Positions 42,799 to 63,175 of a stretch of 64,000 bases of DNA are shown piece by piece. Position 1 is the first letter of the stretch; each line of letters starts with the position of its first letter. Below the pieces are notes generated by a model. That model searched no databases, was not told where the DNA came from, and saw only the letters and a list, made by a program, of their open reading frames with translations. Source of the DNA: a virus; UHGV virus genome UHGV-0039337; one strand, given 5' to 3'. A program made the position numbers and the translations under genes.

Positions 42799-44265
42799 AT
42801 GGCTAATACTAAATTAATAAATTGCGATCAACTTCAAATTTCATTACAGAAAGTTAAAGATTATGTAGATGGTAAGTTTGCAGTAGCTGATCATAATCAC
42901 AATAATGTTTATTATACGCAAACACAAATAAACAATAAAATAAATAATATTAATTCTGCAATAGGCGGTAAAGCTAATGCAACACATTCACATAAATCAA
43001 GTGATGTTACAACCATGGGAGGATATTCTAAACCAGATTCTACTGGTGCTATAGCTACTACTGATACTTTAAATGCTGCAATTGGTAAATTAGAAACAGC
43101 ATTAGATGGTAAATCTAGCTCTAGTCATAATCATAATGGGGTTTATTTACCTATAAATGGTACAGCAGCTAGCGCTACTAAATTAGCTACAGCTAGAACT
43201 ATAAATGGTATAGAATTTGACGGTACTAAAGCTATAACTATAACAGCTAACCCTAATGCTCATAATCAGGCTTCAAATACAATAAATGCAATGACAGGAT
43301 ATGCTATAGCTAAAGCTTCTGCAGCAATAGCTACTACAGATAGTTTAAATACTGCTATAGGAAAACTAGAATATGCAATAGGACAAAAACAAGCTAGTGG
43401 TTCTTATGCTTCAGCCAATCATAATCATGATAACAGATATTATACAGAAACAGAAATAAATACTAAAATATCTGATTTACAAACTGCTGATACAAATAAT
43501 TTAGCTAATGCTAAAGCATATACTGATGCTGCTATTGATAAAATAACCGGAGAAGGCGTATCGGAAGCTCTTGATACATTAAAAGAATTAGGAGATGCAT
43601 TAAATAACGATGCTAATTTTGCAAGTACTATGACTACTGCATTAGCTGGTAAAGCAGATTCAAACCATATCCATGATGTTGCTACAACTACTACTGATGG
43701 ATTTATGTCATCTGATATGGTAACTAAATTAAATGGCATAGCTAATAATGCTAACAATTATGTGCATCCAACTACTGTTGGTAATAAACATATTCCTGCT
43801 GGTGGAGCTACAGGACAATTTTTAGGTTATTCAGCTGCTGGCACTGCTCAATGGGTAGCTAATCCTAATACAGATAGCAAAGTAAATACTGCAGCAGATA
43901 CAACTAGTACTAAATTATATTTAACTGGTGCTACTGGAGCTACTACTGCTGGATTGAAATATAGTTCATCTATTTTCTTTAGTGCTAAAGATGGTACCAT
44001 AACTGCTTCAGGGTTTAATGGCAAAGCTACTAGTGCCGGTTCTGCCGATACTGCTTCTGCTTGTTCTGGTAATGCAGCATCTGCTAGTAAAGTAAATAGT
44101 TCATTAACTATACAATTTAATGGTGTTAATAATAAAACATTTAATGGTAGTTCAGCACAAACAGTTAATATAACTCCTGCTTCAATAGGAGCTGCTACAA
44201 CTGCCGATACTGCTAAAGCAACAGACAAAGAAGTAAGCGATATGCTAACTACTATTTTTGGATAA
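42799..44265 (+). CDS. tail fibre protein with Phage_fiber_2-type repeats (488 aa)
   Basis: AAAGGAGTGCTAAA SD. KLATARTINGIEFDGTKAITITA matches the tail-fibre repeat known from coliphage fibres (laTaRtinGvsFDGsaNit). Spaced HNHN / HSH / HNHNG / HNHD motifs. GEGVSEALDTLKELGDALNNDANFAS motif shared with the 47228 and 27034 genes. Confidence 0.6.
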   Translation: MANTKLINCDQLQISLQKVKDYVDGKFAVADHNHNNVYYTQTQINNKINNINSAIGGKANATHSHKSSDVTTMGGYSKPDSTGAIATTDTLNAAIGKLETALDGKSSSSHNHNGVYLPINGTAASATKLATARTINGIEFDGTKAITITANPNAHNQASNTINAMTGYAIAKASAAIATTDSLNTAIGKLEYAIGQKQASGSYASANHNHDNRYYTETEINTKISDLQTADTNNLANAKAYTDAAIDKITGEGVSEALDTLKELGDALNNDANFASTMTTALAGKADSNHIHDVATTTTDGFMSSDMVTKLNGIANNANNYVHPTTVGNKHIPAGGATGQFLGYSAAGTAQWVANPNTDSKVNTAADTTSTKLYLTGATGATTAGLKYSSSIFFSAKDGTITASGFNGKATSAGSADTASACSGNAASASKVNSSLTIQFNGVNNKTFNGSSAQTVNITPASIGAATTADTAKATDKEVSDMLTTIFG

Positions 44266-44320
44266 AATATTTTATTTATGAAGCGTATATTAAAATTATA
44301 AAAAAGAAAGGAGATATTAG

Positions 44321-46939
44321 ATGGCAAATAATAAAAATATTACATTTGATCAACTTCAAACTTCTCTTAAAAAAGTAAAATCAGCTATCGATGGTAAAGC
44401 AAATACCAGTCATGGAAACCATGTTCCTACTACTGGTACAACCGATAACGCTACATATTTAAGAAATGATAATTCATGGCATAAAATAGTGCCTTCAGAT
44501 ATAGGTGCAGCCCCTTCTGTTCATGGGACACATGTCACATATTCTACAACTGCTCCGTCAGCTCCTGGAACTGCTTCTGCAGGTACTGCTGATAATGTAT
44601 CAAGAGGAGATCACGTACATCCTCTTCAAACTACAATAAGCGGTAATGCCGGTAGTGCTACTAAACTTGCCAATGCTCGTAATTTAACTGTAGGAAATAC
44701 AAAAAAATCATTTAATGGTACAGCTGATGTATCATGGAGTTTAAATGAAATAGGAGCAGCTGCTTCTGGTCATACTCATAATTGTTTTGCAATTAAAGGC
44801 GAAAATACTATATCCGGTATTGCAAATGATACTACAGAAAAATGGAAAGATCATGGTAATTCTGTACACTGGTATACAAAAGCAAATCAAATAACAGGTC
44901 AGCCTTCTCCATATGGTTTCCTTACTAACTGGGCTTCAGGTGGAGACGTTCATCAATTATGGATGACACAAAGTTCTGGAAACATGTTTCATAGAGGTGG
45001 TAATAATGATGGATGGTATGGTACTTGGAGAACAATATTAGATGAAAATAATTTTACTGCTTATTCTCCTACGTTAAGTGGTGGAGGAGCAATGGGTATA
45101 TGGGCAATTAGCGTTACTGGTAACGCAGGTACAGCTACTAAACTTGAAGAATCAAAAACTATAAATGGAACTAGTTTTGATGGTTCTAGTAATATAACTA
45201 CTGCTAATTGGGGTACTGCTAGAACTATTACTATAGGAAATAAAAGCAAATCAGTTAACGGTTCTGCAAATGTATCATGGACATTAGATGAAATAGGTGC
45301 TTTTCCGTTAACTGGTGGTATGTTGAGTAGTGGAGTAGGTATTGTAAATACTTATGGCGAAGCATGGTTTGATATTGGAGCCAATGATACATATGTATAT
45401 AATAAAAATAGCAATAAATCATTACAATTAAAGCATACTGGTGAATTAGTTTATGACGAAACATTTATTTTAGCTAATGAAGACGAAGGCGGTAAAATAA
45501 CTATAAAATCTACTGCTAATAATAATAATACAACAAATTATGGTGTTGGCGGTAGTGATATATATATAGATAACGTTAAAACAGGTAAAGCTTTGCAATT
45601 AAAAAATGACGGAACATTAAGATATAATGATAATATAATTTTAGATTCTAGCAACTATTCTTCTTATACTACTAGAAGATGTTGCGTAGTAGGACAAACA
45701 GGAAACTCTACAAGTAAACCTTATTATCTATTTGCTTATATAATTGCAAATGGATCTAACATGGATAGAGAAATAACATTTAAAGTAAGCACAGGATATG
45801 ATAATATTAAAGCTTCTGGTATATTAAGAGCACATTTAAGAACTAATTCAAATAATTATGTACAGAATGCACAATTATATTGGGAATATGCTAATACTGG
45901 TATAGAAGAAAGTAATTTTATCTTAGCATATGGTACAGGAGTGAATCCTACAGTTGAATTATGGGTTAAATGTGATGTAGCTTGGATGATGTATCATTTT
46001 GAAGTAATACAAGAAATTGCAAGAGACGAACATTATTTAGATCCTAAATGGATGTTGCAAACTTGTTGTCAAGAAGGTTATGCTGATTCTCCTACTAGTG
46101 GATATACTCAAGTGCCTAGTACAATTTTACAATTAAAAAATAGTGCACAATATGCATCAGCACTAAATGATGTTCAATATGCATCAGCATTGGATAATGC
46201 TCAATATACATCAACATTAGATAATGATATACAAATAGAAATAAATCCTTCATCAGGTAATGATAATGTTGAATTAGCAGATGGTGCAGTATATAAAACA
46301 ATTGCAGGAGTACTAGATGCATTACCTAAATTTTTAAACGGTAAACGAGTAAATATCTGGATGCGTGCTGATATAACTGAAAATGCAGACTTTCAAAATT
46401 ATACTAGTGGACAAATAAAATTTTACCTAGATGGACACACATTATACGGATATATTAGAAACTATATGAGTAGTGTTAAAGTGACTGTATATGGTGGATG
46501 GCCAGGTACCGAAAAAGGACATGTTGGAATAATTCACCCACCTGTAGGATGCGCAGTTGCCGGAAGAACAGGTAGCTTTATTTCACAAGAAAACTCCTCA
46601 ATGGATGCTTATAGCGTAAAAATATATGGTAGTGATAATCTGAATTCTTCTGGAACTTCCAATACTGTTGGTGTTATAGGAGACTCGTTTGCTACAATCT
46701 ATACTGAAAATGTTCAGTTTGTAAATTGTGATATAGGATTTAGGGGAAGTACCGGTGCTAGAATACATGATGCGAATTCAAGCGGTGTATGTAGTCAATA
46801 TGGTTATCAAGTTACAAGCGGTGCTTTCATAACAATTGATAACGCTGCCCACTGCGGTGGCAAAACTGCAAATACTGACCAAACATTGCCAGGGCAAATA
46901 ATAGCACACGCTAGCGCTACATATGCAAGCGGTAATTAA
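44321..46939 (+). CDS. tail fibre protein (872 aa) with the same repeat family and a C-terminal distal domain
   Basis: AAAGGAGATATTAG SD. Repeats KLANARNLTVGNTKKSFNGTADVSWSLNEIGAA and KLEESKTINGTSFDGSSNITTANWGTARTITIGNKSKSVNGSANVSWTLDEIGA. Internal tandem QYASALNDV / QYASALDNA / QYTSTLDND repeats. Gly/Thr-rich C-terminal domain. Confidence 0.6.
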   Translation: MANNKNITFDQLQTSLKKVKSAIDGKANTSHGNHVPTTGTTDNATYLRNDNSWHKIVPSDIGAAPSVHGTHVTYSTTAPSAPGTASAGTADNVSRGDHVHPLQTTISGNAGSATKLANARNLTVGNTKKSFNGTADVSWSLNEIGAAASGHTHNCFAIKGENTISGIANDTTEKWKDHGNSVHWYTKANQITGQPSPYGFLTNWASGGDVHQLWMTQSSGNMFHRGGNNDGWYGTWRTILDENNFTAYSPTLSGGGAMGIWAISVTGNAGTATKLEESKTINGTSFDGSSNITTANWGTARTITIGNKSKSVNGSANVSWTLDEIGAFPLTGGMLSSGVGIVNTYGEAWFDIGANDTYVYNKNSNKSLQLKHTGELVYDETFILANEDEGGKITIKSTANNNNTTNYGVGGSDIYIDNVKTGKALQLKNDGTLRYNDNIILDSSNYSSYTTRRCCVVGQTGNSTSKPYYLFAYIIANGSNMDREITFKVSTGYDNIKASGILRAHLRTNSNNYVQNAQLYWEYANTGIEESNFILAYGTGVNPTVELWVKCDVAWMMYHFEVIQEIARDEHYLDPKWMLQTCCQEGYADSPTSGYTQVPSTILQLKNSAQYASALNDVQYASALDNAQYTSTLDNDIQIEINPSSGNDNVELADGAVYKTIAGVLDALPKFLNGKRVNIWMRADITENADFQNYTSGQIKFYLDGHTLYGYIRNYMSSVKVTVYGGWPGTEKGHVGIIHPPVGCAVAGRTGSFISQENSSMDAYSVKIYGSDNLNSSGTSNTVGVIGDSFATIYTENVQFVNCDIGFRGSTGARIHDANSSGVCSQYGYQVTSGAFITIDNAAHCGGKTANTDQTLPGQIIAHASATYASGN
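46145..46228 (+). repeat. three tandem ~30-nt coding repeats inside the 44321 gene
   Basis: caatatgcatcagcactaaatgatgtt / caatatgcatcagcattggataatgct / caatatacatcaacattagataatgat. Confidence 0.6.
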
Positions 46940-47227
46940 ACGACCGATAGTACTTCAGCCTAATACTTATTGCGACTAAGATTACTATAATTAAATCTAA
47001 TAATGGTATTATAAAAGGAGTTTTAATATTCAATCTACCTATATAATGCAGCAAACTATGCAGTATATTCTGGTAGCTTAACAATGAAAATTACTTACAC
47101 AGAATAATGTTTAGTTAAATTAACTAAGCAAAGTAATAATATATATGAATGCAGTAATAGGATTAGTCAAATATTAGCTAGTCCTATTATTATGTATATA
47201 TTATTTACAGAGAAAAGGAGAAATATA

Positions 47228-47767
47228 ATGGCAAATTTAACATTTCTAGAAGCATTAAATAAATCATTAATTGCTACTAAAAAATATGTTGATAACTCAG
47301 TAGCTGGAATAGTGGATTCAGCGCCAGAAACTTTAAATACTTTAAAAGAATTATCTACAGCTTTAGGAGATGATCCTAATTTTGCTACTACTGTTGCAAC
47401 TAATATAGGAAAAAAAGTAGATAAAATAGAAGGGAAAACATTAACAGCTAATGATTTAACAAATGAATTAAAAGCTAATTACGATGCTGCATATGCTCAT
47501 AGTCAAGTGGCACATGCTCCAGCTGATGCACAAAAAAATAGTGATATAACTAAAGATGAAATAGAAGCTAAATTAACTGGTGATATAAGTTCTCATACAC
47601 ATAGCCAGTATTTAACAGAACATCAAAATTTGGATGAATATGCTCCTAAGAAATATGTGGATGATAAAATGGCAAATTTAAGTATAGTAAAAATATCTAA
47701 AACTGATTTTGAAGCATTAACTACAAAAGATGCTAATACTTTATATTTAGTATTAGAAGATTCATAA
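47228..47767 (+). CDS. short tail fibre protein (179 aa)
   Basis: ATG 47228 after AAAAGGAGAAA (track start 47192). PETLNTLKELSTALGDDPNFATTVATNIGKK and a C-terminal TDFEALTTKDANTLYLVLED are typical short-fibre motifs. SSHTHSQY is an HxH motif. Confidence 0.5.
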   Translation: MANLTFLEALNKSLIATKKYVDNSVAGIVDSAPETLNTLKELSTALGDDPNFATTVATNIGKKVDKIEGKTLTANDLTNELKANYDAAYAHSQVAHAPADAQKNSDITKDEIEAKLTGDISSHTHSQYLTEHQNLDEYAPKKYVDDKMANLSIVKISKTDFEALTTKDANTLYLVLEDS

Positions 47768-49295: not shown

Positions 49296-49511
49296 TAAAA
49301 ATATAAAAATACAGTTATAAATAATATTTATTTGAAAATAATTAAAAGACAATGTTATGTCAGTTAAGTATTATATTTTAATACACCTTCTTATAATTTA
49401 ATAGGGGGGTGTATTTTATTATGATTTTTTACAATAATAATAAAGAAGAGGCAGAAAAAAATATGGAACAAGTTTATGAATTACTAGCAGAAATTTTAAT
49501 AGAAAGCGAGA

Positions 49512-50906
49512 GTGATAATAATGAAAAATCAATTACTTAATATAGCTTATTTGCGTTGTAGTACAGATGACCAAGATGTAGCACATCAATTATCAAGTAT
49601 AGAAAAATTCTGCGAAAGTCAAAATATAGTTATAGACAAAGTAATTAAAGACGAAGGCGTAAGTGCTTATAGTAAAAGTGCATATGAAAGAAAAGGCTTT
49701 AGTGAAGTAATACATTTAGTAGAAGAAAACAAGGTTAATAAACTTATATTATTCGAATCTTCTAGATTATCTAGAAATTTTCATGAAGGACAAAATTTAA
49801 TTAAATTCTTTAGTGACAAAAGAGTGGAGATATATAGTGTAGTAGATGGTGGTATAATTAATGCTACTGAAGTAGATGAATTATTAAATAGTATTAGGTA
49901 TTGGCTTAATCAAAAAGCCAGTAAAGAAACAAGTGATAGAATTAAAAGTCAAAAAAAGTTAGCTAAATCCAAAGGAGAATTTCTGGGACATCCTGTTCCA
50001 CTAGGATTTAAAATAGAAAACAAGCATGAAATTATAGACGAAGATAAGCGTAATTTTATTATTGAATTATTTAATACTTATATTAATCAAAGTTCTAGAG
50101 CATGTATAGATTTATTAAAAACTATAGGAATCAAAGCTAATCATCAAACGCTATTGCAAAGGATAAAAAATGATAAATATATACAAATAGTAGGAAAAGA
50201 TACTTTTAACAAAGCCCAAGAAACCATACAATCTAGAAGATGTAATAAAGGAAATAATACCAGAACTTTAAACAGGAGTAATATTTTATATGAGGGTTTA
50301 TTATACCATCTATGTGGTAGCAAACTTACAATAGATAAAAATAGAAAAGGTGAACCTGTTTTTAGATGTAGAAGATGCAAACATAATTTAGATATAAATA
50401 TTAAAAAATCTTTTATTGGTAATCCTTTAATGAACAATATTAACAAAGATATGTATGAAATAATCAATAATTTAGATAGGAATAAATTAGAAGAGAAGTA
50501 TAAAGAACGTAATAACAAACAACGCTCAATAATATCTTACAAAATACACGAACTAAAAGCATCTATTAAAAGCAAGAAAAAATCTTATGCTTTAGCTAAT
50601 AATAAATTAGAAAAAATATTAATATCTGATATGGATGATTCACTTATATCTACTGTGGCTAATACTGTTAACAATATAAAAAAAGAGATAGAAGAATTAG
50701 AAAAGGAATTAAATATTGAGCAAGAAAAAATAGATACTATAGACGAACAAGCGAAATTTAATGCTGGTTTAATTAATAAAATAATCAACTTAAAAGATGT
50801 GTATATAAACGGAAGTGACAAGAAAAAGAAGGCTATACTTAACTTTATGATAGATAAAGTAATAGTTTATGACATTGATAAGTTTGATATTTTTTTAAAA
50901 ATATGA
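49512..50906 (+). CDS. large serine recombinase (resolvase catalytic domain, recombinase domain, zinc ribbon, coiled-coil tail)
   Basis: N-terminus LNIAYLRCSTDDQDVAHQ carries the serine-recombinase catalytic motif (R-x-S-T-x-x-Q). A Cys-x2-Cys-x16-Cys-x2-Cys zinc ribbon (CGSKLTIDKNRKGEPVFRCRRCKHN) and a K/E-rich coiled-coil C-terminus follow. At 464 aa it falls in the large-serine-recombinase class (phiC31 Int / TnpX / SpoIVCA), not the small Gin/Hin invertases. The start may be ATG 49521 rather than GTG 49512. Confidence 0.8.
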   Translation: MIIMKNQLLNIAYLRCSTDDQDVAHQLSSIEKFCESQNIVIDKVIKDEGVSAYSKSAYERKGFSEVIHLVEENKVNKLILFESSRLSRNFHEGQNLIKFFSDKRVEIYSVVDGGIINATEVDELLNSIRYWLNQKASKETSDRIKSQKKLAKSKGEFLGHPVPLGFKIENKHEIIDEDKRNFIIELFNTYINQSSRACIDLLKTIGIKANHQTLLQRIKNDKYIQIVGKDTFNKAQETIQSRRCNKGNNTRTLNRSNILYEGLLYHLCGSKLTIDKNRKGEPVFRCRRCKHNLDINIKKSFIGNPLMNNINKDMYEIINNLDRNKLEEKYKERNNKQRSIISYKIHELKASIKSKKKSYALANNKLEKILISDMDDSLISTVANTVNNIKKEIEELEKELNIEQEKIDTIDEQAKFNAGLINKIINLKDVYINGSDKKKKAILNFMIDKVIVYDIDKFDIFLKI

Positions 50907-50984: not shown

Positions 50985-52934
50985 ATGGCTAAAAAAGAGC
51001 AGTTTGATGCTTTACAAATAGTAAATGACAGTCTAAAACTTTATGTAAAAGAAAAAATAGCAGAAGCGAAAATATCAGGTGGAGATGTTGATCTTAGTAA
51101 TTATGTTACTAAAATTACAGGTAATGCTAGTCAAATTACTTTTAATGATGGTCAATCTTTTCAAGATAAATTAAATAATGGCACTTTAAAAGGTGATAAA
51201 GGAGACAAAGGTAATGATGGTGCAATTGGACCTCAAGGACCTGCTGGTGAAAAAGGTGACCAAGGTGAAGTAGGGCCTCAAGGACCTGCCGGAGAAAAAG
51301 GAGATACTGGCCCACAAGGACTAGCAGGTGTTGATGGTACACCTGGAGCTAAAGGTGATAAAGGTGAAATTGGAGAACAGGGACCAAAAGGAGATACTGG
51401 ACCTGCCGGTAAAGATGGAGCTGATGGATTAACTACAGCTGTATCTGTTAATGGTGTTACTTATAACCATATTAATGGAGTAATTACATTGCCTAACTAT
51501 CTTAGTCAAATATATAAAACTCCTAAATTTATTACAACAACTACTACTTCATACAAAGATTCGTCAGGTAATACAGGTTTTACAATAGATTTAGGTATTC
51601 CTACGACTTCTGTATTATCTATAGATAGTATAGTTGTTACTGCTAAATATCAAAATACTGATTTAAAAATAACTCATGTAAAATTAGAAAACAATTCAAC
51701 TAATTGGAATTTATTGGCAACAGTAGAGGGATATGATGCTAATCAAAAATATACTGTATCAGTAGCCATATTTAATTATGGAGAAGAATTAACTGTAGCG
51801 GAAGCATTAAATAAATTATTTGCTAAAGTTTATTTAGGTTCTATATCTCCCGCTGGCTCTGGTAGTGGAGAAACTACTACTGAAACATTAACTATAAGCA
51901 ATATAGCAAATATAACACAAAATATTAAAACATCATTCTATATAGAATATAGCACTAATATAGCGGTGACAAAACATGAAGTATCGTGGGATGGTGGAGA
52001 CACATTCTATGATAAAACTGGTGACGTTACTTCTATTGGTAATAATCATAAGTTTTTACATGACGATAAAGCAAATGCTGGAACATATAACATGGCTATA
52101 AGAGTTACAACTGCTAAAGGTACAACTAAGACAAGTAATATATTTACTGTTACTTTAGTAGATAATAGTGAAGATGAATATGCTATGTCTTGTACTTCTG
52201 AATATATTCTAGACAAGATGTATCCAATGCCACAAAACCATGAAGCAGTACCGAGTGGTGTTACTGATACATGGGCTACTCAATCTCGTTGGGAGAATCA
52301 ACAAAGACCTACTGCCGCAGCACATAACTGTGGTCAAGCGAATTGTCCAGGAGCAGTACAATTTAAAGCTTTAGGTGCTTGGGCTAATGTATATAGAGTA
52401 AAAGATTCAGGATTTAGTTCTAATACTGGAGTTGAAATGAGAAACATAAAAGTTTACGGATGGTATAATGGTCAATGGGAAAAAGTACAAGATATGGCTG
52501 TGCCTGATGGTAATTTTTACACTGAAAGTTTCTCTGGAGATAGTAATCAATACTTTAGTGACAGTATTAAAACTACAAGCACTAGTAAAACTATAATTTT
52601 AAGAGAAAAAAATAAGGTTAATGGTGAAAACTGCATGTACCACCCATTCTCAAAAATAAAGAATTTTGATGTAAAATATGAATATGTATATACTTGCATA
52701 GATTTACGTAAGGTCAAATGGGATGAAAGTGGAGTAGATGATAGAGATAGTTCTCATTACTGTGCAAGTTGTGGTGGTGACTGGTGGTTAGCTGAAGGGT
52801 TAACATTTGATAGTAGTTGGCAACATAACAAAGGTGTAGCCCAACCTAAGATAATAGAAATTACAAATAAGTGGAGAAGATTCTCTATGACTACTGTTCC
52901 ACAAGACTGGACAAGTGGGTTTCCCACCAAATAG
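50985..52934 (+). CDS. collagen-like fibre protein (649 aa)
   Basis: GAAAGGAGCTGA SD. About 80 residues of uninterrupted G-X-Y triplets ([79 protein letters not shown]). Contains a module ([22 protein letters not shown]...TVTLVDN) paralogous to a segment of the 53692 gene. Confidence 0.6.
51192..51428 (+). repeat. collagen G-X-Y triplet repeat coding region
   Basis: Tandem ggNNNNNNN triplet codon periodicity visible in the sequence. Confidence 0.7.
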
Positions 52935-53685
52935 TGATAGTGAAAATGAAACTGTAACAGTTGATGCTCTAGAAATATTGCCTTCATTTACTTATGCTGA
53001 TATTCCAGAAGAAGGAACTAAAAATTTATATGTAAAATTATCTAGTAAACCAGATTCAGATATTATAGTAAATACTACTTCATCATCACAATATTTATCT
53101 TGTTCACCTTCTTCATTGACTTTTACAAATACAAATTGGAGCGTATCACAAAAAATAGCTATAAGCTCATTAAAAGATAATAATGAATCTGATGATACAT
53201 ATAATATAACATTGTCATCAAATGATTTATCTTCTAAAGTTTCAATAGAAGTTACTGATGCTTCTAATAGCAATTATGAAATGTTATATGATAATGGTGT
53301 ATTATCTCATGGTACTTTGACTTTAAACAATGCTACAAATTATGGAAGCTATATTACAATAACTCAAAACGAAAATTCTTCTGTTATGATAAGTGGTTAC
53401 CCTATATCATTAAATAAAAATGATAAGGTTTATTTACAGTTAGGATTAGACACATCAGACCCAGCTTCTACATATTCTATAAAAATAGGTCAACTTGGAG
53501 ACTCATCAGCTAATGACATAAGTAATAGTAATATGCTTACAGAGCAACAAATATCAAACGCATTAGATGGTGATAAAATATTAACATATTGGACTGTAGC
53601 AAATGCAGTATCAAATATTGATTTAACCATTACATCATATTATGCTAGAGTTAAAATTTATAAGATATATATTGAAAGGGGGTAG
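52915..53685 (+). CDS. fibre C-terminal module ORF; possibly expressed as a +1 frameshift extension of the collagen-like gene
   Basis: GTG start overlaps the last 20 nt of the previous gene in the +1 frame. There is no SD upstream. The +1 frame is open from 52891. The product ([39 protein letters not shown]...[13 protein letters not shown]) is paralogous to an internal module of the 53692 gene. Confidence 0.4.
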
Positions 53686-53691
53686 TAATTT

Positions 53692-56600
53692 ATGGCTAAT
53701 CAAATAATAAATTCAAAAAATTTAACTTCAAAAGAAATTCCAGAATTATATATAAGATATTTTAATTCAAAGGTAAAAATAAATACAGATATAACTATTC
53801 CTTATTATGTATCAGATAATACTCAAGCTGAATATCTAAATAATAGTAATGCTAAAAGTTTTACAACTATAGTTACATTTAATTCAAAAGTATTTTCCAG
53901 CACTACTACTGCTGGAGAATTTACTATTAATATAGGGTCTGTATCTACTGTAGGAGAAACTTATTTTAGTATTTATACTATAGATAACAATGGTGTTGCT
54001 AGCGCGGAACAATTTTTTGATATACTAATTATAGATGATACATATCCAATAACTCAAAGTCAAACTTACACTATGACTTCAGCAGATTTATCTACTTACA
54101 ATATAAAAGCTGGAGAGTCTGTATCTATAAGTGATGCTAAATTAAACGGAGCATCTTTAATAAGTTTATTTAAAGGAGTTAAAGATAAAGGTTATAGAAA
54201 AATTATAATGCTTAATAATATCTATATGCTAGATTACCATGGAAATAAAGTTATTCTTCCAGACCAATTTACTGTGGATATGAATGGGGCAACTTTTAAA
54301 GCTACACAATGTAATGATATAAATGTAGCTAATTTAGTAGATTTAAGAGATTGCTTTGATTCTCATGTAATAAACGGAAAACTAATTGGTAATTATGATG
54401 GATTTGATTTTGCGGCAACAAAAACTAATACTAATTATAACATACCTGGAGAAGGATTGGCTGTTGCTGAAATTAATGGTGCTAGATATTCTTCATTTGA
54501 AAATATGGATATGTCTTACTCAGTAGGGTATAACTTAGGAGTTTTCGGTGGAAAAAAATCAGGGTATGTTGGAACTCCAGGAAAATTAGCTTTTAAGAAT
54601 CAATACTATATTGATGCCAATGGAAATCAAGTAAATAGTTCAGATATGTGTACAACTGATATTATAGATATTTCTACTTTATTAGACAGAGGAGAGTTAC
54701 AATGTAGTGTATATTTAGGATATGGAGGATTATCATTAGATAAAGCAGAATTATTTATACATTTTTACGATAGCTCTCAAAAATATCTAAAAACTATAAA
54801 AACTAGACAATATCAAATAGTAAAGATTCCTGCAGGAGCAAATTATGTAAGAATAACTGGGTTTACTTCTGTAACTGAATCTTCTGGTTTAACTATATGT
54901 TGTACAGGACAAGCGACTAATTGTGAATTAATAAATATAAAATCTCATAATACCAGAACTTGTGCTATGCATCCAGGAATTTATAATCATCTGCTTATAA
55001 AAGATTGTACATTCAACAAAGTTGCAGATGAGAATGAATATAAAGTAACTAAATTAGCTTTAGACTTTGAAGATGGATATGAAAACGGAAGAAATTTATT
55101 CTTTATAAATAATGAAGTATATGATGGGACTTCAGCACTAACAGTTCAGAGATGTTTTAATTGTAATGTTATTAAGTGTAGAAATTTTGGATTAGACTTA
55201 AGAGGACATATAAAAGGAGCTTTAATTAAAAATAATTTCTTTAATGAAGGAAGCATATATACAACTAATTTTGATTCCCAATCTCATATGAAATTAGATA
55301 ATAATACATTCTTCAGATCTTTGAAATTTTTAAAATGGGATGATAAAGGAAATTACCCTACAGTAGGATTGACTAATTTAGACTGTAAACAAAATTATCA
55401 AAATAATTCTAATACTAATGTAGTAATAGATAATGCTGTTAATGGAAGTGGTAGTGGAGGAGCTCCATCTCAAACATATTATAATATTATAAATAATATA
55501 TCAAATTGTACTACTGATAATAGTGATAATTTAGTATTGAAAGATTCTTCATATAAAGCTACGATAACTCCAAAGAGTGGATATGATATAACTTCAATAA
55601 CTGTAACTATGGGTGGAGTTGATATAACTTCTACTGCATTATCTGGACATACGATAAATATAGAAAAAGTTACTGGAAATGTTAATATAAATGTAACTAC
55701 TAAAGAAATAGAAAGTTATAGAATAACAAATAATTTAACTAATTGTACAAATTCAAACACTACAAGTAGCATATTAAAGAATAAAAGTTATAGTGGTACT
55801 ATAGTATCTAATGAAGGATATGATTTATATAGTATAACAGTAACAATGGATGGAACCGATATAACTTCATCTTCTGTAAGTGGAAATTCTATAAATGTAT
55901 CTAGTGTAACCGGAGATATTATTATAACAGCTGTATGTACTACAGAAGTGACTGAGGTTATATATGACAACGGTACTCTAAATAAAGGTACATTTAAATT
56001 GAAGAATGCTACTGCTGAGAGTACTTATATCAGAATAAATCAAAATCAAGATTCTTCTGTTACTATAAATGATTATAAATTAACTTTGAATAAAAATGAT
56101 AAAGTTTATATGGATATAGGATTAGATACTGATAGTCCATCAAATGGATATTCTATAAGAATGCTTCAATTAGGAGATTCTTCAGTAAACAATTTTACAA
56201 ATACAAATATGATAAATGAATCTCAAATATCTACTGCTTTAAATGGTAAAGATAAAGTTACTATATATTGGACTATAGCAAACACAGTATCTAATATTGA
56301 TTTAACATTAACATCATATTTTGCTAGAGTTAAAATATTTAAAATTTGGATAGATAAAAATTCTACCGAATCTGGAGGTGGAGGAACCACTCCAGAAACA
56401 TTAACTATTAGTAATATATCCAACATGACACAACCTGCTCAAACAGAATTTTATATAGAATATACTACAAATATAGCTGTAGTAAAACATGAAGTGTCAT
56501 GGGACGGCGGTAACATGTTCTATGATAAAACTAGCGATGTAACTTCTAATGGAACATCATATAAATTTAAACATGATAATGCAGGAACTGCTGGAACATA

Positions 56601-58026
56601 CAAAATGGCTATAAGGGTTACTACTTCAAGTGGAGAAACTGTAACAAGTAATATATTCACAGTTACTTTAATGAATGATAATGGATTAGTTTTCACGCAG
56701 TATAAAAAATTAGATGATGGTGTAGTTACAGATACTACGGATACGAAATACCATAGTACTATTAATAAAATATCAGTAACTCCATCAGCAAAATATACAC
56801 TTGATCTAAAACCTGTAAGTTATGTTTGTATATGTTTCTATGATAATAATGACACTTATTTAGGTAATAATTCAGGGGGATACATAGAAAACCATACATC
56901 AGATTGGTCAGTTGGTTCATTATCAACAACTTTTACTGTGCCAGCTAGTGCTTCATATATTAGAGTATGTGGTACAACTGATGATACACAAGTAACAGGA
57001 ACACTAACTAAATCTTCTTCTGGTACAGGTACAAGTACAAGTGAATTATTAGATAGTGATGGCGCTTACGTTATAGATGATTTCTCAAGTAACACAATAG
57101 ATTCTAATAAATGGTCATATGAATTGGGTTACGTAAGAAATAATGAAACTCAAAGATATACAAATACAAACGCTGAAGTCAACGACGGTATATTAGCTTT
57201 AAGAGGTTTAAAGGCCAGTGATGGTTCATGGACATCTGCATCTATTATTTCAAAAGGTCACTTCGCCTTCATGTATGGTAAAATAGTTGCCAGAGTTAGG
57301 GCTTGTAACTTAAATGGAGCATTTGGAGCATTTTGGACTTTAGGTGATTCATTTGAATTTGGATATAAAGAAAATGGTAGTCCTGATACATTAGGTGAGT
57401 GGTGGGCATACTGTGGTGAGTTTGACGTTATGGAATTTTACAATGGAAAATTGACTTGTGGCACTTTCTTCAATCAAAAGGAAGAAAGTGGACGTGTATG
57501 GTACAACAATTATCCAACTGGTGATTGGCATGAATTCGCAATGGAATGGAAAACTGACGGTACATTAATTTTTACTATTGATGGTAATGAGTTAAGTAGA
57601 ACAAACGCAACAGATAATAGAGCATTCCATATACCACACTTTATACTACTTAATCAAGCAATTGGTGCTAGTGGTGGTACTCCTGATAGTAATACTACAG
57701 AAATCACTCAATACGTTGACTGGGTTAAATATTATCCACTAAGTACCGATAACGTAGTATTAAATTCTAGTGACTTTACACTAGCTGCTATGGATGCTAA
57801 TGATAGTTCACATAACTGTATGGTAAGACCTACTTTTAATGACAACTGTATTAATAAATCATTAACATGGAGTTCTAGTAATGATAGTCTTGTATGGGTT
57901 CATAGTGGATTATGTAGTACTTATGCAGGAGCTAATGGTGAAGTAATAATAACTGCCACTTCACACTCAGGTGTATCAAAACAAATTACATTAACAGTAG
58001 CAGACGGAATACTACGTGCTAAATAA
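53692..58026 (+). CDS. fibre/tailspike with right-handed beta-helix region, duplicated modules, GH16 (laminarinase-type) glycoside hydrolase domain and C-terminal Big_2 domain (1444 aa)
   Basis: GAAAGGGGGTAG SD. Beta-helix-like region NCELINIKSHNTRTCAMHPGIYNHLLIKDCTFNKV..CFNCNVIKCRNFGLDLRG. GH16-like region about nt 57070-57745 carries the E-x-D-x-x-E catalytic motif within GEFDVMEF, flanked by WTSASIISKG and WHEFAMEW. C-terminal Big_2 segment (SLTWSSSNDSLVWVHSGLCSTYAGANGEVIITATSHSGVSKQITLTV). Confidence 0.6.
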   Translation: MANQIINSKNLTSKEIPELYIRYFNSKVKINTDITIPYYVSDNTQAEYLNNSNAKSFTTIVTFNSKVFSSTTTAGEFTINIGSVSTVGETYFSIYTIDNNGVASAEQFFDILIIDDTYPITQSQTYTMTSADLSTYNIKAGESVSISDAKLNGASLISLFKGVKDKGYRKIIMLNNIYMLDYHGNKVILPDQFTVDMNGATFKATQCNDINVANLVDLRDCFDSHVINGKLIGNYDGFDFAATKTNTNYNIPGEGLAVAEINGARYSSFENMDMSYSVGYNLGVFGGKKSGYVGTPGKLAFKNQYYIDANGNQVNSSDMCTTDIIDISTLLDRGELQCSVYLGYGGLSLDKAELFIHFYDSSQKYLKTIKTRQYQIVKIPAGANYVRITGFTSVTESSGLTICCTGQATNCELINIKSHNTRTCAMHPGIYNHLLIKDCTFNKVADENEYKVTKLALDFEDGYENGRNLFFINNEVYDGTSALTVQRCFNCNVIKCRNFGLDLRGHIKGALIKNNFFNEGSIYTTNFDSQSHMKLDNNTFFRSLKFLKWDDKGNYPTVGLTNLDCKQNYQNNSNTNVVIDNAVNGSGSGGAPSQTYYNIINNISNCTTDNSDNLVLKDSSYKATITPKSGYDITSITVTMGGVDITSTALSGHTINIEKVTGNVNINVTTKEIESYRITNNLTNCTNSNTTSSILKNKSYSGTIVSNEGYDLYSITVTMDGTDITSSSVSGNSINVSSVTGDIIITAVCTTEVTEVIYDNGTLNKGTFKLKNATAESTYIRINQNQDSSVTINDYKLTLNKNDKVYMDIGLDTDSPSNGYSIRMLQLGDSSVNNFTNTNMINESQISTALNGKDKVTIYWTIANTVSNIDLTLTSYFARVKIFKIWIDKNSTESGGGGTTPETLTISNISNMTQPAQTEFYIEYTTNIAVVKHEVSWDGGNMFYDKTSDVTSNGTSYKFKHDNAGTAGTYKMAIRVTTSSGETVTSNIFTVTLMNDNGLVFTQYKKLDDGVVTDTTDTKYHSTINKISVTPSAKYTLDLKPVSYVCICFYDNNDTYLGNNSGGYIENHTSDWSVGSLSTTFTVPASASYIRVCGTTDDTQVTGTLTKSSSGTGTSTSELLDSDGAYVIDDFSSNTIDSNKWSYELGYVRNNETQRYTNTNAEVNDGILALRGLKASDGSWTSASIISKGHFAFMYGKIVARVRACNLNGAFGAFWTLGDSFEFGYKENGSPDTLGEWWAYCGEFDVMEFYNGKLTCGTFFNQKEESGRVWYNNYPTGDWHEFAMEWKTDGTLIFTIDGNELSRTNATDNRAFHIPHFILLNQAIGASGGTPDSNTTEITQYVDWVKYYPLSTDNVVLNSSDFTLAAMDANDSSHNCMVRPTFNDNCINKSLTWSSSNDSLVWVHSGLCSTYAGANGEVIITATSHSGVSKQITLTVADGILRAK

Positions 58027-58121
58027 TAGATGATATCGGCAGTAATAATGAGAAGTAAAATAAAGAAATATTTTATTATATATAGCGTTAATATCATATT
58101 TATAAAATGTTTAATATAACG

Positions 58122-58148
58122 AGAGGTCTTTTACAGACCTCTTTTATT
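58122..58148 (+). terminator. rho-independent terminator
   Basis: AGAGGTCT / AGACCTCT stem (8 bp), loop TTTAC, then TTTATT. Confidence 0.65.
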
Positions 58149-58200
58149 ATTTATTCACTTACCGGTAATATTTCAATGAATGAAAGGAGTGATAATTCAT

Positions 58201-58713
58201 ATGTCAGATAATTTAATACATCCTTATTACAATCATGGTTATGCCCGTTATGATATAGATATTAATGATGTAATAGCTGGTCTTAAAAAAGCCGGATATA
58301 TATTAGATGATTCAGATAACGATACGGATGATAATTTTGATAATTTAGACTCTAGCTTAAGGCTTGAAGTGTTAAGCACTCGTGGCACACGTTGTAATAG
58401 TACAGGATTTAATACAATATTATACCCTAGATTATATAAAAATAATATAGATATAACAGATGAAGTACCTGTTAGTAATTTTAAATGGAGAAGAGTTAGT
58501 GGCAATAGTGAAGTAGCTCGTCTTGAGGATGCCGAATGGAATTTACGTTATGCTAATGGTTCTAAAGAATGTTACGTTACAAAAGATGATATAAAACGTA
58601 ACAGTACATTTACATGTTTATATGTAGAATATGAATATCAAGATGTAGCTTATGTTAATACAGCGTATAAAGCTTATATAAATAATGCAAATTTAAATGG
58701 TGGTGATAATTAA
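58201..58713 (+). CDS. hypothetical tail protein (170 aa)
   Basis: ATG 58201 after GAAAGGAGTGA (track start 58180 lies inside the SD). Stop overlaps the next start (TAATG). Confidence 0.4.
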   Translation: MSDNLIHPYYNHGYARYDIDINDVIAGLKKAGYILDDSDNDTDDNFDNLDSSLRLEVLSTRGTRCNSTGFNTILYPRLYKNNIDITDEVPVSNFKWRRVSGNSEVARLEDAEWNLRYANGSKECYVTKDDIKRNSTFTCLYVEYEYQDVAYVNTAYKAYINNANLNGGDN

Positions 58714-60197
58714 TGGCTTATGAAAAGGTAAAAGCCACTGCTTCAGTTACAATAGTAGATGAAACTGATGCTTCGATACTTACTGGTAATATGCTTGTAG
58801 TTAAAGGTAGTAAGAATCAGATATATATAACAGGTCAAGGTAATCCTTATTCTCCTGACTGGACTAAAAACAATCTTGTTATTCGTCCTTTCTTACAGGC
58901 TAGTAATATTACTAAAGAAGATTCAACTAATGTTGAATACAATCCTGATTTATTTGATCCTAAAGAATATCCTAATTCTATATCTACTTATGGATATATA
59001 CGTGATATACATTGGTTTATTCGTGATAATGCGGGAGTAGAAAAAGAGTTACTTGATTCTAGTGATTGTTCTTTCTCTTATTCTTACAATATAGATGGTA
59101 TTGCTACTATGTGTACTGATGGAAGACAATTAGTAATTAGGGCTAACATGCTATCTAAAAATACTACTGCAGATATAGTATGTAAATTTAGTTTTTATGA
59201 TCCATTTGCTAATATGTATATTAGTCAGCAACTTGAAACTACTATAATTAATATTGCGAGTGGTCAATCTAACAGTAAACTATTAACATCTTGTGTTAAC
59301 GGTAGCGCAATAACCAATACAGGAAATTCATATATAGATATTATAGCTAAATTTTATGATGATACTGGAGAAATAAATATAGATGAATTAATAAGTAATG
59401 GTGATGCTAACGTATCATGTTTATGGTATATAAGACGTTATGATGGATGGATACTATTAGATCCAACAGAAGCTGGTCAAAGCTCAGCTAATATAGATAC
59501 TATGATGTATAAAATAATGAGAGTTAACTCATATAATGATGTTAGCGGTACATATGAATTAGTCGATTCTAATAATGCAAAAGGTAATGCAGCACTTCGT
59601 ATTTATCCTGCATTTATATCAGGATCTGAAATAATTAAATGTGTATTTACCGATCCTACTGGAGCTAAATATAATTCATTACAAGTAATATATGATGCAA
59701 CTGATCCTACTAGTGTTGAATTATATTGTAGTAACGGTAAAAGACTTAAAAAAGGTAGTATAGAAAATACTACTGTTAAAGCTATCGTTACTTATAAAGG
59801 TAGTCTATTGGAAGATGATAGCCCATTATACAATACAGAATTTGATTATTATTGGTATAAATATACTATAACAGATGATGTATATGTTAATGTATATAAT
59901 GATGCCAACAATAATCTTATAGAGAACGCTGATTTAAACAATCCTATAAAAGGTAAAAGAACTTTATTTATTAATACAGATGCTATTACATCTGATGAAA
60001 AGGAAGCGCGTTTTAGTCTTGATTTAGTTGAATATGGTGCTTTATCTGCTGAAAGTGCACAGGCTAATTATTTAGCCAATGCTGTATCAGAAGAAGATTT
60101 AGCTACTGCTATGGCTGTTAATAATAATATTGGTATGAATGAAAATGATGTGCAAGCTGCTATTGTTACAGCACAAGAATTAAATACTTTAGAGTAG
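58713..60197 (+). CDS. distal tail protein (494 aa), N-terminal paralog of the 60209 gene
   Basis: GGTGGTGA SD. N-terminus MAYEKVKATASVTIVDETD parallels MAYTALAKASVTIELFENE of the next gene. Confidence 0.45.
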   Translation: MAYEKVKATASVTIVDETDASILTGNMLVVKGSKNQIYITGQGNPYSPDWTKNNLVIRPFLQASNITKEDSTNVEYNPDLFDPKEYPNSISTYGYIRDIHWFIRDNAGVEKELLDSSDCSFSYSYNIDGIATMCTDGRQLVIRANMLSKNTTADIVCKFSFYDPFANMYISQQLETTIINIASGQSNSKLLTSCVNGSAITNTGNSYIDIIAKFYDDTGEINIDELISNGDANVSCLWYIRRYDGWILLDPTEAGQSSANIDTMMYKIMRVNSYNDVSGTYELVDSNNAKGNAALRIYPAFISGSEIIKCVFTDPTGAKYNSLQVIYDATDPTSVELYCSNGKRLKKGSIENTTVKAIVTYKGSLLEDDSPLYNTEFDYYWYKYTITDDVYVNVYNDANNNLIENADLNNPIKGKRTLFINTDAITSDEKEARFSLDLVEYGALSAESAQANYLANAVSEEDLATAMAVNNNIGMNENDVQAAIVTAQELNTLE

Positions 60198-60208
60198 GAG
60201 GTGTAATT

Positions 60209-63175
60209 ATGGCCTATACTGCTTTAGCTAAAGCTAGCGTTACAATAGAACTATTTGAAAATGAAGATAAATATGAAGCTATAGTAGTTTCTACTAATGG
60301 TGTTATATTACAACCATATGATACATCTACTACTCTTATAGGTACTGTATTAAAAAATAATATAGATGTGACTAAAAACATTAGTAATTTAAAATGGACC
60401 AAATGGAATCCTACTACTGATAATCTTGAAGAATGTGAAGACTGGAATAAATCTCATATTGGCTCTTCAAGTATAGTTATAACTAAAGATGATGTTAATA
60501 GTAAAAGTATATTTAGTTTTGAGGCCTACAATAATAAAAATGAATTATTGTGTTCTACTACTATATCTATAATAGATATAAATGATTTACTAACTTCAAC
60601 TACGAAACCTAGTAATCCTTATATTGGTCAGTTATGGATAGATGATACTACAGATCCTGCTAATCTATATGTATGGAATGGTTATAAATGGATAATATCT
60701 GGAGCTATAGGTGTTGTAGTAAAAAATCTTTTACGCAATACAGGTTTTATATATAATTGTGATAAATGGGATATAGTAGGAGATACAAAATTAATGTATA
60801 CCCCTGTACCGCATTCATATCTTGAACATAGATTTCTTAAATTAAATAGTGATGTACTAACAGATAGTATTCGTGGTATAACACAAACAACAATAGATAC
60901 TATAGTTCCTAAAAGTGATTATAGTCTTCAGATGTTGTTTTATTCTAAAGAAAATAGTCAGTCATATTCAAATAACATATCAGTTAATGTATATTCTGTT
61001 GATTCATCTAATAATGAAATTATAGTATATAGTAATATTATAACTGCAGAAGAAAAACTTAAGAGGATATGTGCCCGTTTTAAAAGTCTAAACAATACAA
61101 AAGCTTTTAGAGTACAAATTACGGGAGAAAATAAATATAGATTTGATTTTAATATAGCAGAATTATGTTTATACAATACTAGCAATGAATATCCATGGAC
61201 TGTTAATCCTTCAGACAATAATGAAAATCTTACTCAAGAAAACTTATGGAATATATTGTCCAATAATAATACTGTTAAAGGTATTTTTTCTATAAAGAAT
61301 TCTGAAACTGGGCAACTTGATTATTATATTAATGCCGATGCTATTATTGCTGGGCAAATAAAAGCACAATACATGAATTTGTACGGATTAAGCATAACAC
61401 GTAAAGATGATCCTAGTATTAAGACATTTGAGGTTACAGAAGATGGTTATATAAACATTGCAGTTAATGAATTAAAGATAGGCGCATCTAATAAAACTTT
61501 AGAAGATTATATAAATACAGAAATTAATATTGACGGAGATAGTATAAAAGCAGAATTACGTAATGAGTTTAATGAAAAGTATACTAAAATAGGAGCAACT
61601 ATAGACGGAATAAACACAGAGGTATCTGATTTAAAAGGCGACGCTAAAACTTTATTTGATATTACTAATAAAGGTATATATATAAAAACTAATGCAGATG
61701 GTTCTAATACATTAGTAGATATTAATAATAAAAGTTTTAGTGTTAGTTCGGAAAATATAAAGTTAGAAGGTTATACTACTATTAATGGAGGCTTTAGCGT
61801 AGATCTTGATGGTAATATGACAGCTAATAATGGTAAGTTTACTGGTACTATTATATCTTCTACTATAAAATCTGATGATACTGACGATCCACAATTTAGT
61901 CTTACTCCTGACGGTACATTAAGAGCTAATAATGTACATGTTAAAGGCGAAATAAGTGGTAAAATACCTGATTTAGAAAAGCTTGTTAGTGGAAGTGGTA
62001 AATTTACTGTAAATGAAAATGGAGTATTGGAAGCCGAAGAAGCTATTATACATGGAGATATAACTTCGGGTTCTACAATAACAGGCTCTACTATTCGTAA
62101 TGTTACTGGAACATTTAAAATAGATAAAAACGGTAATATAAAAGGTGGTTCTTTTGATATAAATGATAAGTTTAAAGTTGATTCATCAGGGAACATGACA
62201 TCTACATCAGCTAATATAGTAGGTAATATAAATGCAGGATCTAAAATTAATGGTGCTACTATATATATACCTGGTAAAGATGAAGGTTATTCAGAAAACA
62301 TATATGATATAACAATAGAAAATGGACATATGACTATGAGTAATAGACTGTATCCTGATGATCAATATTTAAATATAAAATCTAATTCTTTAAATAATCA
62401 GGCTATTAAAGATATAACTGATTCCGAAAATAAGTATGCATATAGTATATACGATGAAATGTTTTTATCAGAAGGTACGTTGGCTTTTAATAAAAGAAAA
62501 TATGATAAGTACTATGGAAATCCTTATAATAAATATGATTCTTATACATTTACAATGTGGAGCACTGATCATTTTGAAATTAACGATGGATGGATGCGTG
62601 GAAACGATTTAGTATGTATTAATAATATACGACATCAGCCAGCAGCAAAATATCAAGACTCTAACGAAGGTGATATCATATATAAAGGAGAAAGCAATAC
62701 ATTTGTAGCTGATCATTTCGATAAAGGTTTTAATACTATTGGCGATTTTAGTGGCTCAGGAATCAATAAAGGAAATGGCGTACTTACACTAGGCGATTGT
62801 GTGTTATTATATGGCTCAGCTGATTTTACCAATTTAGAAGCAGATACTCCAAATAGTAAGGCTATAAACTTTGATGATATATATGAATATGTATATAGTT
62901 CAAATCCTTTATCAGATGCTCCATATGTTACTTTATCTATTAATAGCTATACTCCTTCTATGTTTTCATGTAGTGTCGCTGATATAACAAGAAACGGATT
63001 CAATATTTACTGCAATAGTAAACTTGGTTCAGCAGTAACTGTACATTGGATGGCAATAGGTATAAGTAAGACAAGAACATTTGCTTATAAGATATACGAA
63101 AACTTTGCTACTCTTGACAATGTTCAATTAATGAGCGGTGCATATGATAAAGAAAAAGCTAAATTATTCTATTAA
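60209..63175 (+). CDS. tail fibre / host-specificity-type protein (988 aa)
   Basis: GTAGGAGGTG SD. PSNPYIGQLWIDDTTDPANLYVWNGYKWI is the LW..LYVWNG.W motif recurrent in phage distal-tail and fibre proteins. Confidence 0.5.
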   Translation: MAYTALAKASVTIELFENEDKYEAIVVSTNGVILQPYDTSTTLIGTVLKNNIDVTKNISNLKWTKWNPTTDNLEECEDWNKSHIGSSSIVITKDDVNSKSIFSFEAYNNKNELLCSTTISIIDINDLLTSTTKPSNPYIGQLWIDDTTDPANLYVWNGYKWIISGAIGVVVKNLLRNTGFIYNCDKWDIVGDTKLMYTPVPHSYLEHRFLKLNSDVLTDSIRGITQTTIDTIVPKSDYSLQMLFYSKENSQSYSNNISVNVYSVDSSNNEIIVYSNIITAEEKLKRICARFKSLNNTKAFRVQITGENKYRFDFNIAELCLYNTSNEYPWTVNPSDNNENLTQENLWNILSNNNTVKGIFSIKNSETGQLDYYINADAIIAGQIKAQYMNLYGLSITRKDDPSIKTFEVTEDGYINIAVNELKIGASNKTLEDYINTEINIDGDSIKAELRNEFNEKYTKIGATIDGINTEVSDLKGDAKTLFDITNKGIYIKTNADGSNTLVDINNKSFSVSSENIKLEGYTTINGGFSVDLDGNMTANNGKFTGTIISSTIKSDDTDDPQFSLTPDGTLRANNVHVKGEISGKIPDLEKLVSGSGKFTVNENGVLEAEEAIIHGDITSGSTITGSTIRNVTGTFKIDKNGNIKGGSFDINDKFKVDSSGNMTSTSANIVGNINAGSKINGATIYIPGKDEGYSENIYDITIENGHMTMSNRLYPDDQYLNIKSNSLNNQAIKDITDSENKYAYSIYDEMFLSEGTLAFNKRKYDKYYGNPYNKYDSYTFTMWSTDHFEINDGWMRGNDLVCINNIRHQPAAKYQDSNEGDIIYKGESNTFVADHFDKGFNTIGDFSGSGINKGNGVLTLGDCVLLYGSADFTNLEADTPNSKAINFDDIYEYVYSSNPLSDAPYVTLSINSYTPSMFSCSVADITRNGFNIYCNSKLGSAVTVHWMAIGISKTRTFAYKIYENFATLDNVQLMSGAYDKEKAKLFY

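Follow-up and report, generated by a model that had tools for sequence, protein, structure and literature searches.

A modular tail fibre of an uncultured ∼270-kb phage carries a GH16 laminarinase-type domain within an exchangeable cassette

Phage depolymerases are nearly always described as β-helix tailspikes. Kp32gp38, LKA1 gp49, CBA120 TSP2/3 and the tail spike of Bacillus phage Deep Blue combine an N-terminal anchor with a parallel β-helix, are encoded among tail genes, and pair a conserved N-terminus with a variable distal part, and such classical tailspikes end soon after the helix. An unrelated glycosidase fold is that of glycoside hydrolase family 16 (GH16), a family of retaining endo-glycosidases that use the first Glu of an EXDXXE motif as the nucleophile and the last Glu as the acid/base. 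The laminarinases of subfamily GH16_3, such as ZgLamA (4bq1), TmLam (3azx) and BglF (2hyk), have a β-jelly-roll fold. The only characterized viral GH16 is the endo-β-1,3/1,4-glucanase of the chlorovirus PBCV-1, which lies near GH16_3 yet outside it (PMC6827312). Here we describe a gene at 53692..58026 (+ strand, ATG start) of a 64,000-nucleotide stretch of the viral genome UHGV-0039337 (hereafter the window), which was located from the open reading frame (ORF) list and its translation and encodes a fibre protein of 1,444 amino acids (aa). The product would be of a known kind, the phage tail-borne polysaccharide depolymerase, and shares with the tailspikes above their anchor, helix, genomic site and conserved N-terminus with a variable distal part. 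It differs from classical tailspikes in running ∼890 aa further as a beads-on-a-string series of modules and in carrying, within these distal modules, a second glycosidase fold of the GH16 type. A jelly-roll GH16 on a tail fibre, distal to the β-helix of the same polypeptide, has no characterized example.

A sequence-only reading of this gene had proposed a GH16 laminarinase-type domain with an E-x-D-x-x-E motif in a jelly-roll-like context, a proposal that turned on whether a search with the Pfam profile PF00722 would align the catalytic Glu residues. The motif is part of GEFDVMEF (aa 1242-1249), which holds the sole E-x-D-x-x-E of the fibre protein; by itself, a motif of this form is not beyond chance (0.12 occurrences expected from the protein composition). 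A scan of aa 1120-1350 as an isolated domain gave a PF00722 score of 39.2 bits, above the gathering threshold of 22 (E 6.3e-10), in an alignment that spans positions 9-174 of the 175 in the profile and has the catalytic Glu residues in register. A phmmer search of all PDB chains returned 26 GH16 entries, the best of which was the Zobellia laminarinase ZgLamA (4bq1, E 1.7e-19); its cgEiDilE aligned to cgEfDvmE of the fibre with the catalytic E-D-E in register. In the sequence search and the fold search alike, the top 20 PDB matches are laminarinases or β-1,3(4)-glucanases. An AlphaFold2 model of aa 885-1444 has a mean predicted local distance difference test score (pLDDT) of 82, with values of ∼90 over the GH16 and C-terminal domains, and the modelled GH16 domain matches GH16 laminarinase crystal structures in a Foldseek search (E 1.5e-17, target template-modelling score 0.73-0.81) with a β-jelly-roll (ConA-like) fold. 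The proposal is borne out on each of these points, and the domain around GEFDVMEF is GH16 (PF00722, clan GH-B).

On the basis of the Pfam match, the PDB sequence search, the fold search and the invariance of the E/D/E residues, the catalytic domain was placed at aa 1116-1349 (57037..57738, +). Alignment to the GH16 motif identifies E1243 (57418-57420, +) as the predicted nucleophile, D1245 (57424-57426, +) as the Asp of the motif, and E1248 (57433-57435, +) as the predicted acid/base. These three residues are invariant across 11 cassettes with identity down to 35%, and the aromatic platforms W1215 and W1238 are invariant in the cassette alignment as well. An NCBIfam scan gave a sole match, to a κ-carrageenase family, at 33.8 bits against a threshold of 350, which is far too low to be informative beyond the family level.

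The fibre domain and the GH16_3 laminarinases share the β-jelly-roll fold, an EXDXXE motif that aligns residue for residue, the motifs NNE-Q-YT, TSA, YGK, FWTLG and LNxAxG, and the aromatic platforms of the -1 and -2 subsites. The fibre domain is, however, only 25-30% identical to these enzymes, has Phe for their conserved His, FGA for WPA and WAY for WPX, and sits within a phage fibre, where an immunoglobulin-like (Ig-like) domain comes after it. The PBCV-1 enzyme is likewise virus-encoded, but it is a small protein from a eukaryotic algal virus with 22-24% identity in a structural alignment. A fold search of viral structure models returned GH16 matches only from chloroviruses, which were the top matches, one pithovirus, and one uncultured 'laminarinase-like' siphovirus protein. 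A 'laminarinase-like protein' of an uncultured member of the Caudoviricetes (DAL56463.1, our P0048; Siphoviridae sp. ctLfk13) is an orthologue of this fibre that matches it at 64% identity across the first 800 aa and has a GH16 domain of the second type described below. The family is thus already present in databases, where such names are automatic annotation only, without a described architecture, context or function.

The gene lies within a tail-fibre cluster, in which the neighbours at 42799-47767 and 58180-63175 and the collagen-repeat protein at 50985-52934 match PHROG tail-fibre or tail families. At the N-terminus of the product is a β-sandwich (aa 1-120; 53692..54051, +), modelled as all-β with a pLDDT of 85-95, which is the presumed virion-attachment domain; it is kept at 60-90% identity in all 75 orthologues that we compared and probably anchors the fibre to the tail. 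It is followed by a right-handed parallel β-helix (aa ∼121-555; 54052..55356, +) with an inserted β-sandwich at aa ∼295-400, identified from the AlphaFold2 model, Foldseek and tblastn. The model of aa 1-895 has a mean pLDDT of 85 and exceeds 90 over aa 1-550. A Foldseek search with the helix returned, with E values of 1e-7 to 1e-3, GH110 α-galactosidases, a GH28 exopolygalacturonase and alginate epimerases (AlgE4), along with the tailspikes and depolymerases Kp32gp38, LKA1 gp49 and CBA120 TSP2/3. In addition, tblastn aligned it with the protein annotated as the tail spike in Bacillus phage Deep Blue (24% identity), and a distant homologue (P0081) carries PF13229. A β-helix profile searched against PDB sequences gave nothing useful, and the helix is recognizable by fold only; at that level, the upstream β-helix of the sequence-only reading is supported. 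Among homologues at 22-35% identity, N198, N228, R422, D458 and E460 are invariant and D196, H225, E254 and D461 nearly so. This conserved polar cluster resembles a helix active site, probably a second one in the fibre, and the helix may itself be an enzyme.

The distal part of the protein is where the orthologues diverge. Identity over the first ∼600 aa is 60-94% in all 75, and beyond this the C-terminal modules have been duplicated, put in another order or exchanged. Two types of GH16 domain occur, 35% identical to one another and each with its motif intact: type A, with GEFDVMEF as here, and type B, with GEIDIMEH. Type A alone is found in 24 of the 75 orthologues, type B alone in 20, and both types in 10, with neither in 21, some of which may be truncated. 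The catalytic E/D/E residues are present in 54 of the 54 orthologues that bear a GH16 domain. In the ten orthologues with both types (P0012, P0015-P0020, P0025, P0026 and P0040), the two domains are on one polypeptide and both motifs are intact. Another orthologue, P0068, has in place of GH16 a Metallophos domain, matched over two stretches at 70.2 bits. The last 250 aa (398-647) of the neighbouring collagen fibre (50985-52934) are found, at 89-90% identity, as the C-terminal end of GH16-fibre orthologues in related jumbo phages (L034, 9190-9939; L046, 9199-9948; L058, 7345-8094). Because the end of the collagen fibre sits on GH16-fibre orthologues, distal modules move between adjacent fibre genes.

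The unit formed by the GH16 and Ig-like domains (aa ∼1116-1444) also occurs outside this fibre, at 57-82% identity, as proteins of ∼365-400 aa. In one locus (L005, 8125-11063), within a contractile-tail module like that of phiCD119, the genes for Baseplate_J, Gp48 and a fibre of 587 aa are followed directly by a separate 366-aa GH16+Ig gene. In another of this type (L061, 4735-6978), the fibre and the GH16 unit are fused into a single protein of 747 aa, of which the fibre portion is 37% and the GH16 portion 67% identical to the L005 counterparts; the baseplate proteins of the two loci are ∼83% identical. The occurrence of the unit both apart from the fibre and fused to it speaks for an enzyme that works as a fibre component. 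A scan of IMG/VR found 61 viral contigs that carry the cassette at 77-93% identity over the best segment. Phages of 36-71 kb have it in proteins of 620-1,160 aa and phages of 109-204 kb in proteins of 1,500-2,128 aa, and several of the N-termini match PHROG tail-fibre families. The cassette is common among uncultured phages, and its family comprises dozens of 50%-identity clusters, a rough number since the whole-library profile search was swamped by proteins with many Big_2 repeats. The GH16+Ig unit behaves as an exchangeable cassette, which in related phages is swapped, doubled, or replaced by a phosphoesterase on the same fibre scaffold.

Our current hypothesis, which we consider reasonably probable, is that the gene product is a tail fibre or tailspike of modular build whose GH16 domain cuts a surface or wall polysaccharide of a clostridial host of low G+C (GC) content at adsorption. 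The N-terminal β-sandwich would anchor the fibre to the tail, and the β-helix would form the body of the tailspike, perhaps as an enzyme itself. Beyond it, a flexible linker would lead into a string of Ig-like and β-sandwich domains, with GH16 and its Ig-like domain near the distal end. By analogy with other GH16 enzymes, E1243 would serve as the nucleophile and E1248 as the acid/base in a retaining, double-displacement endo-hydrolysis, and the cutting of host surface or cell-wall polysaccharide during adsorption would give the tail access to the wall. A low-GC bacterium of the Peptostreptococcaceae type is the probable host, as suggested by a homologue (P0112, 65% identity over the GH16 domain) that lies between Amidase_2 and Amidase_3 in a metagenome-assembled genome (MAG) of Intestinibacter sp., by the baseplate of the L005 lineage, which is most similar to that of Clostridioides difficile myophages (42% identity for baseplate J), and by a GC content of 29-33% throughout.

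Several points weigh against this reading, beginning with the fit to GH16_3, for which the markers used were a WPA...WXX...WPX pattern, a conserved His beside EXDXXE, and a network threshold of 1e-55 (PMC6827312). In the fibre, the pattern reads FGA (1211-1213)...WTL (1215-1217)...WAY (1238-1240), which is degenerate and keeps two of the three Trp residues; some cassette homologues have FPA and WPY at these positions. The position of the conserved His is taken by F1260, and by F, Y or V in all cassette homologues, and the best E value to a solved GH16_3 member, 1.7e-19, is far weaker than the network threshold for subfamilies. For these reasons we file the domain only as a GH16 near GH16_3, on the basis of its β-bulge EXDXXE form and its best matches; the domain may belong among the GH16 sequences without a subfamily, like the PBCV-1 enzyme. 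The His and Trp departures mean that its activity or specificity may differ from those of laminarinases. With both the His and the first Trp replaced by Phe, 'laminarinase' therefore refers to the fold and mechanism and not to the substrate.

The nature of the substrate is constrained from a different direction. The perpendicular aromatic platforms that line the -1 and -2 subsites of GH16 glucanases and O-glycanases impose a β-1,3 linkage between the sugars bound there, and a further point of caution is that GH16 enzymes have no conserved discrimination of glucose (Glc) from galactose (Gal) at the -1 subsite (PMC7419316). Because W1215 and W1238 are these platforms and are invariant, and because Glc and Gal are not told apart, a substrate with a β-1,3 kink is a reasonable inference, but 'laminarin' is not. 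The host assignment is of moderate confidence. A scan of 185,579 species-representative bacterial genomes found no close copy of the cassette, the best match (33% identity) being an ordinary bacterial GH16, and the assignment thus leans on a single MAG bin and, in another phage lineage, on the similarity of the baseplate. With these points taken into account, what we infer for location, activity, substrate and host is that the protein is most likely a virion-borne retaining endo-β-glycanase that acts on a host surface glycan with a β-1,3 kink.

The same departures from the subfamily pattern could be read to mean that the GH16 domain, as a ConA-like jelly-roll, is a lectin-like binder without useful turnover and that the cutting is done by the β-helix, which has its own invariant acidic cluster (D458/E460/D461). 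Inactive proteins with the GH16 fold do exist, and the pseudo-glucanase Rv0315 is among the fold matches. Yet E1243, D1245 and E1248 are invariant in both GH16 types and in cassettes with as little as 35% identity, and catalytic residues have been lost in only 0.7% of GH16_3 members, while binders typically have lost them (PMC6827312); we regard a pure binder as unlikely. Less credible still is an enzyme directed at glycans that are not those of the host, such as dietary β-glucans or mucin O-glycans, whether as an auxiliary metabolic gene or for passage through or adhesion to mucus. GH16 genes of rumen phages have been read as auxiliary metabolic genes for fibre digestion (PMC10465536), gut O-glycanases of GH16_3 are among our matches (6t2n by phmmer, E 1.6e-13; 6t2n and 6t2r by Foldseek), and the C-terminal domain is Ig-like. 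The sequence of the domain is, however, closer to glucanases than to O-glycanases, and the domain is one covalent segment of a tailspike-type protein of 1,444 aa, encoded within a fibre cluster, and is elsewhere fused to fibres directly after baseplate genes, neither of which is expected of a metabolic gene.

Timing is the remaining question, as the cassette could act late in infection, either by cutting wall polysaccharide together with the endolysins or by destroying receptors on debris and so freeing the progeny. In two loci (L003 and L004), a standalone GH16 gene lies between genes for Amidase_2 and Amidase_3, amidase neighbours that are confined to one lineage; the arrangement in L003 could also mean a role in lysis, which is a last point to be set against action at entry. 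In phages of Firmicutes, tail-fibre genes commonly stand directly before the lysis genes, so that adjacency to amidases is weak evidence for such a role. Moreover, both in the window and in the majority of its other settings the domain belongs to a fibre protein, and receptor destruction is compatible with a role in entry. We therefore think it improbable, to about the same degree as a non-host substrate, that the cassette acts late, and continue to favour cleavage of a host polysaccharide at adsorption.

A more specific version of this hypothesis concerns the clostridial wall polysaccharide of the PS-II type, which anchors the surface layer (S-layer). PS-II of C. difficile consists of hexaglycosyl-phosphate repeats that are joined by phosphodiesters and contain β-Glc-(1-3)-β-GalNAc, in which GalNAc is N-acetylgalactosamine (PMC4014741). 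A polymer of this kind would need both a β-1,3-aware glycosidase and a phosphodiesterase for its breakdown, and these fibres bear those two enzyme types in alternation. It is conceivable, though in our estimation unlikely, that GH16+Ig is a host-range cassette of at least three uncultured gut or wastewater lineages (the ∼45-58 kb phiCD119-like myophages, the ∼70 kb phages and the 150-270 kb jumbo phages) that, with the phosphoesterases, dismantles a phosphodiester-linked β-1,3 wall glycopolymer of Peptostreptococcaceae. If this is true, the GH16 domains of the two-enzyme toolkit would form a new clade, specific to phages and directed at a substrate other than a glucan, and would offer a candidate enzyme against the clostridial wall polysaccharide to which the S-layer is anchored.

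Between the helix and the GH16 domain, the fibre consists of a series of small modules. A disordered Asn/Gly/Ser linker (aa 556-594; 55357..55473, +; pLDDT 29-45) is followed by two tandem Ig-like repeats of ∼80 aa (aa 595-675 and 676-757; 55474..55962, +), modelled as β-sandwiches with a pLDDT of 84-91 and weakly matched by Flg_new_2 and Big_6, which are duplicated or moved in the orthologues. The β-sandwich module after these (aa 758-890; 55963..56361, +) is common to the ORF at 52915-53685, as detected through the DNA repeats D3 and D5, and aa 755-889 of the fibre are 59% identical to aa 122-255 of that ORF. Then comes a Big_13-like Ig domain (aa 894-996; 56371..56679, +), whose Big_13 score of 25.6 bits is below the cut-off of 27. 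It is shared with the collagen fibre (50985-52934), with 54% aa identity between aa 833-996 of the GH16 fibre and aa 236-394 of the collagen fibre and 76% DNA identity over repeat D1. A further β-sandwich (aa 1000-1115; 56689..57036, +), modelled as all-β with a pLDDT of 66-88, accompanies GH16 in many orthologues and possibly binds carbohydrate. The protein ends in an Ig-like, Big_2-like domain (aa 1350-1444; 57739..58023, +) that follows type A GH16 in every such cassette. For this domain, the sequence-only reading had named Big_2: the Ig-like fold holds, with a modelled β-sandwich at pLDDT 90-97, but the Big_2 profile (PF02368) scores 20.5 bits, just under its cut-off of 22.8. A precomputed PF02368 match is present on homologues at 87-88% identity. 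Repeats of a ∼29-nt family (D10) lie at module junctions of two fibre genes (51860-51888, 55449-55477 and 56373-56401), where they encode the Gly-rich linkers GSGETTTET, GSGGAPSQT and GGGGTTPET. These repeats are plausible recombination points for module shuffling.

Other genes of the window encode proteins of related interest. Within the fibre cluster, 49512-50906 (+) encodes a 464-aa serine recombinase with a Resolvase N-terminal domain (80.6 bits) and a match to a PHROG integrase/invertase family, and terminator-like hairpins at 49380-49415 and 58121-58143 flank the recombinase and the next three fibre genes. A search of the window DNA for inverted repeats that might serve invertase-driven fibre switching gave none that was convincing, the best being 23-39 nt at 75-83% complementarity, and fibre switching by the neighbouring recombinase, although possible, is not supported. 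The second of these hairpins (58121..58143, +) begins ∼95 nt past the fibre stop codon and consists of a 9-pair stem and then a T-run, a consensus match only. The number of promoter-like sites in the window was at chance level. A second, metallophosphoesterase-bearing fibre had been proposed from the sequence alone; at the domain level this agrees with the 873-aa product of 32948-35569 (+), in which Pur_ac_phosph_N and calcineurin-like Metallophos domains are both above their Pfam cut-offs, and the agreement extends to the domain level only. This phosphoesterase has no significant similarity to the phosphoesterase module of P0068, so that the idea of a shared module fails. The adjacent 35591-42040 (+) encodes 2,149 aa with a CotH kinase domain (55.8 bits, cut-off 23.8), BspA-type leucine-rich repeats and a Laminin_G_3-like region (24.6 bits, below the cut-off of 27.6), a set of domains that is unusual for a phage structural region. 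Lastly, 141-8561 (+) encodes a 2,806-aa protein that is probably a giant tail component or ejection protein bearing a wall-lytic domain; its aa 1779-2327 match an endolysin-annotated PHROG family at 533 bits.

The source of the window is an uncultured ∼270-kb phage with a GC content of 29%, known from wastewater and other metagenomes. A public protein (P0001) identical to the 1,444-aa fibre has been called in public assemblies on contigs of up to 271 kb, and the gene is present on a ∼270-kb contig (ERZ28618049 scaffold_23, 269,929 bp) and in a wastewater assembly. The GC content varies from 26 to 34% across the window, every long ORF is on the + strand, and a search of the window for tRNAs as a clue to the host found none. 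A megablast search of the fibre gene against GenBank phages gave no match, and beyond the Deep Blue tail spike, tblastn against the same set found only two faecal fragments that lack annotation. For two of the loci from mid-size phages (L061 and L035), megablast matched only one unannotated faecal fragment. On the basis of these searches, the fibre gene and its cassette are without cultured phage relatives.

The protein is also one that routine annotation easily misses, since a PHROGs scan of the whole 1,444 aa gave no match, a Pfam scan of the whole protein did not find GH16 (PF00722 matched only when aa 1120-1350 were scanned alone), and P0001 has neither a name nor a precomputed Pfam match. 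Systematic under-annotation of this sort may affect long fibre proteins of biased composition. The placement of a GH16 domain on a fibre alters the interpretation of phage GH16 genes that have hitherto been read as metabolic. If the substrate is indeed a clostridial wall polysaccharide, then the ∼330-aa cassette would be a specific glycanase for typing or stripping that polymer and would help to trace the host range of an uncultured group of phages.

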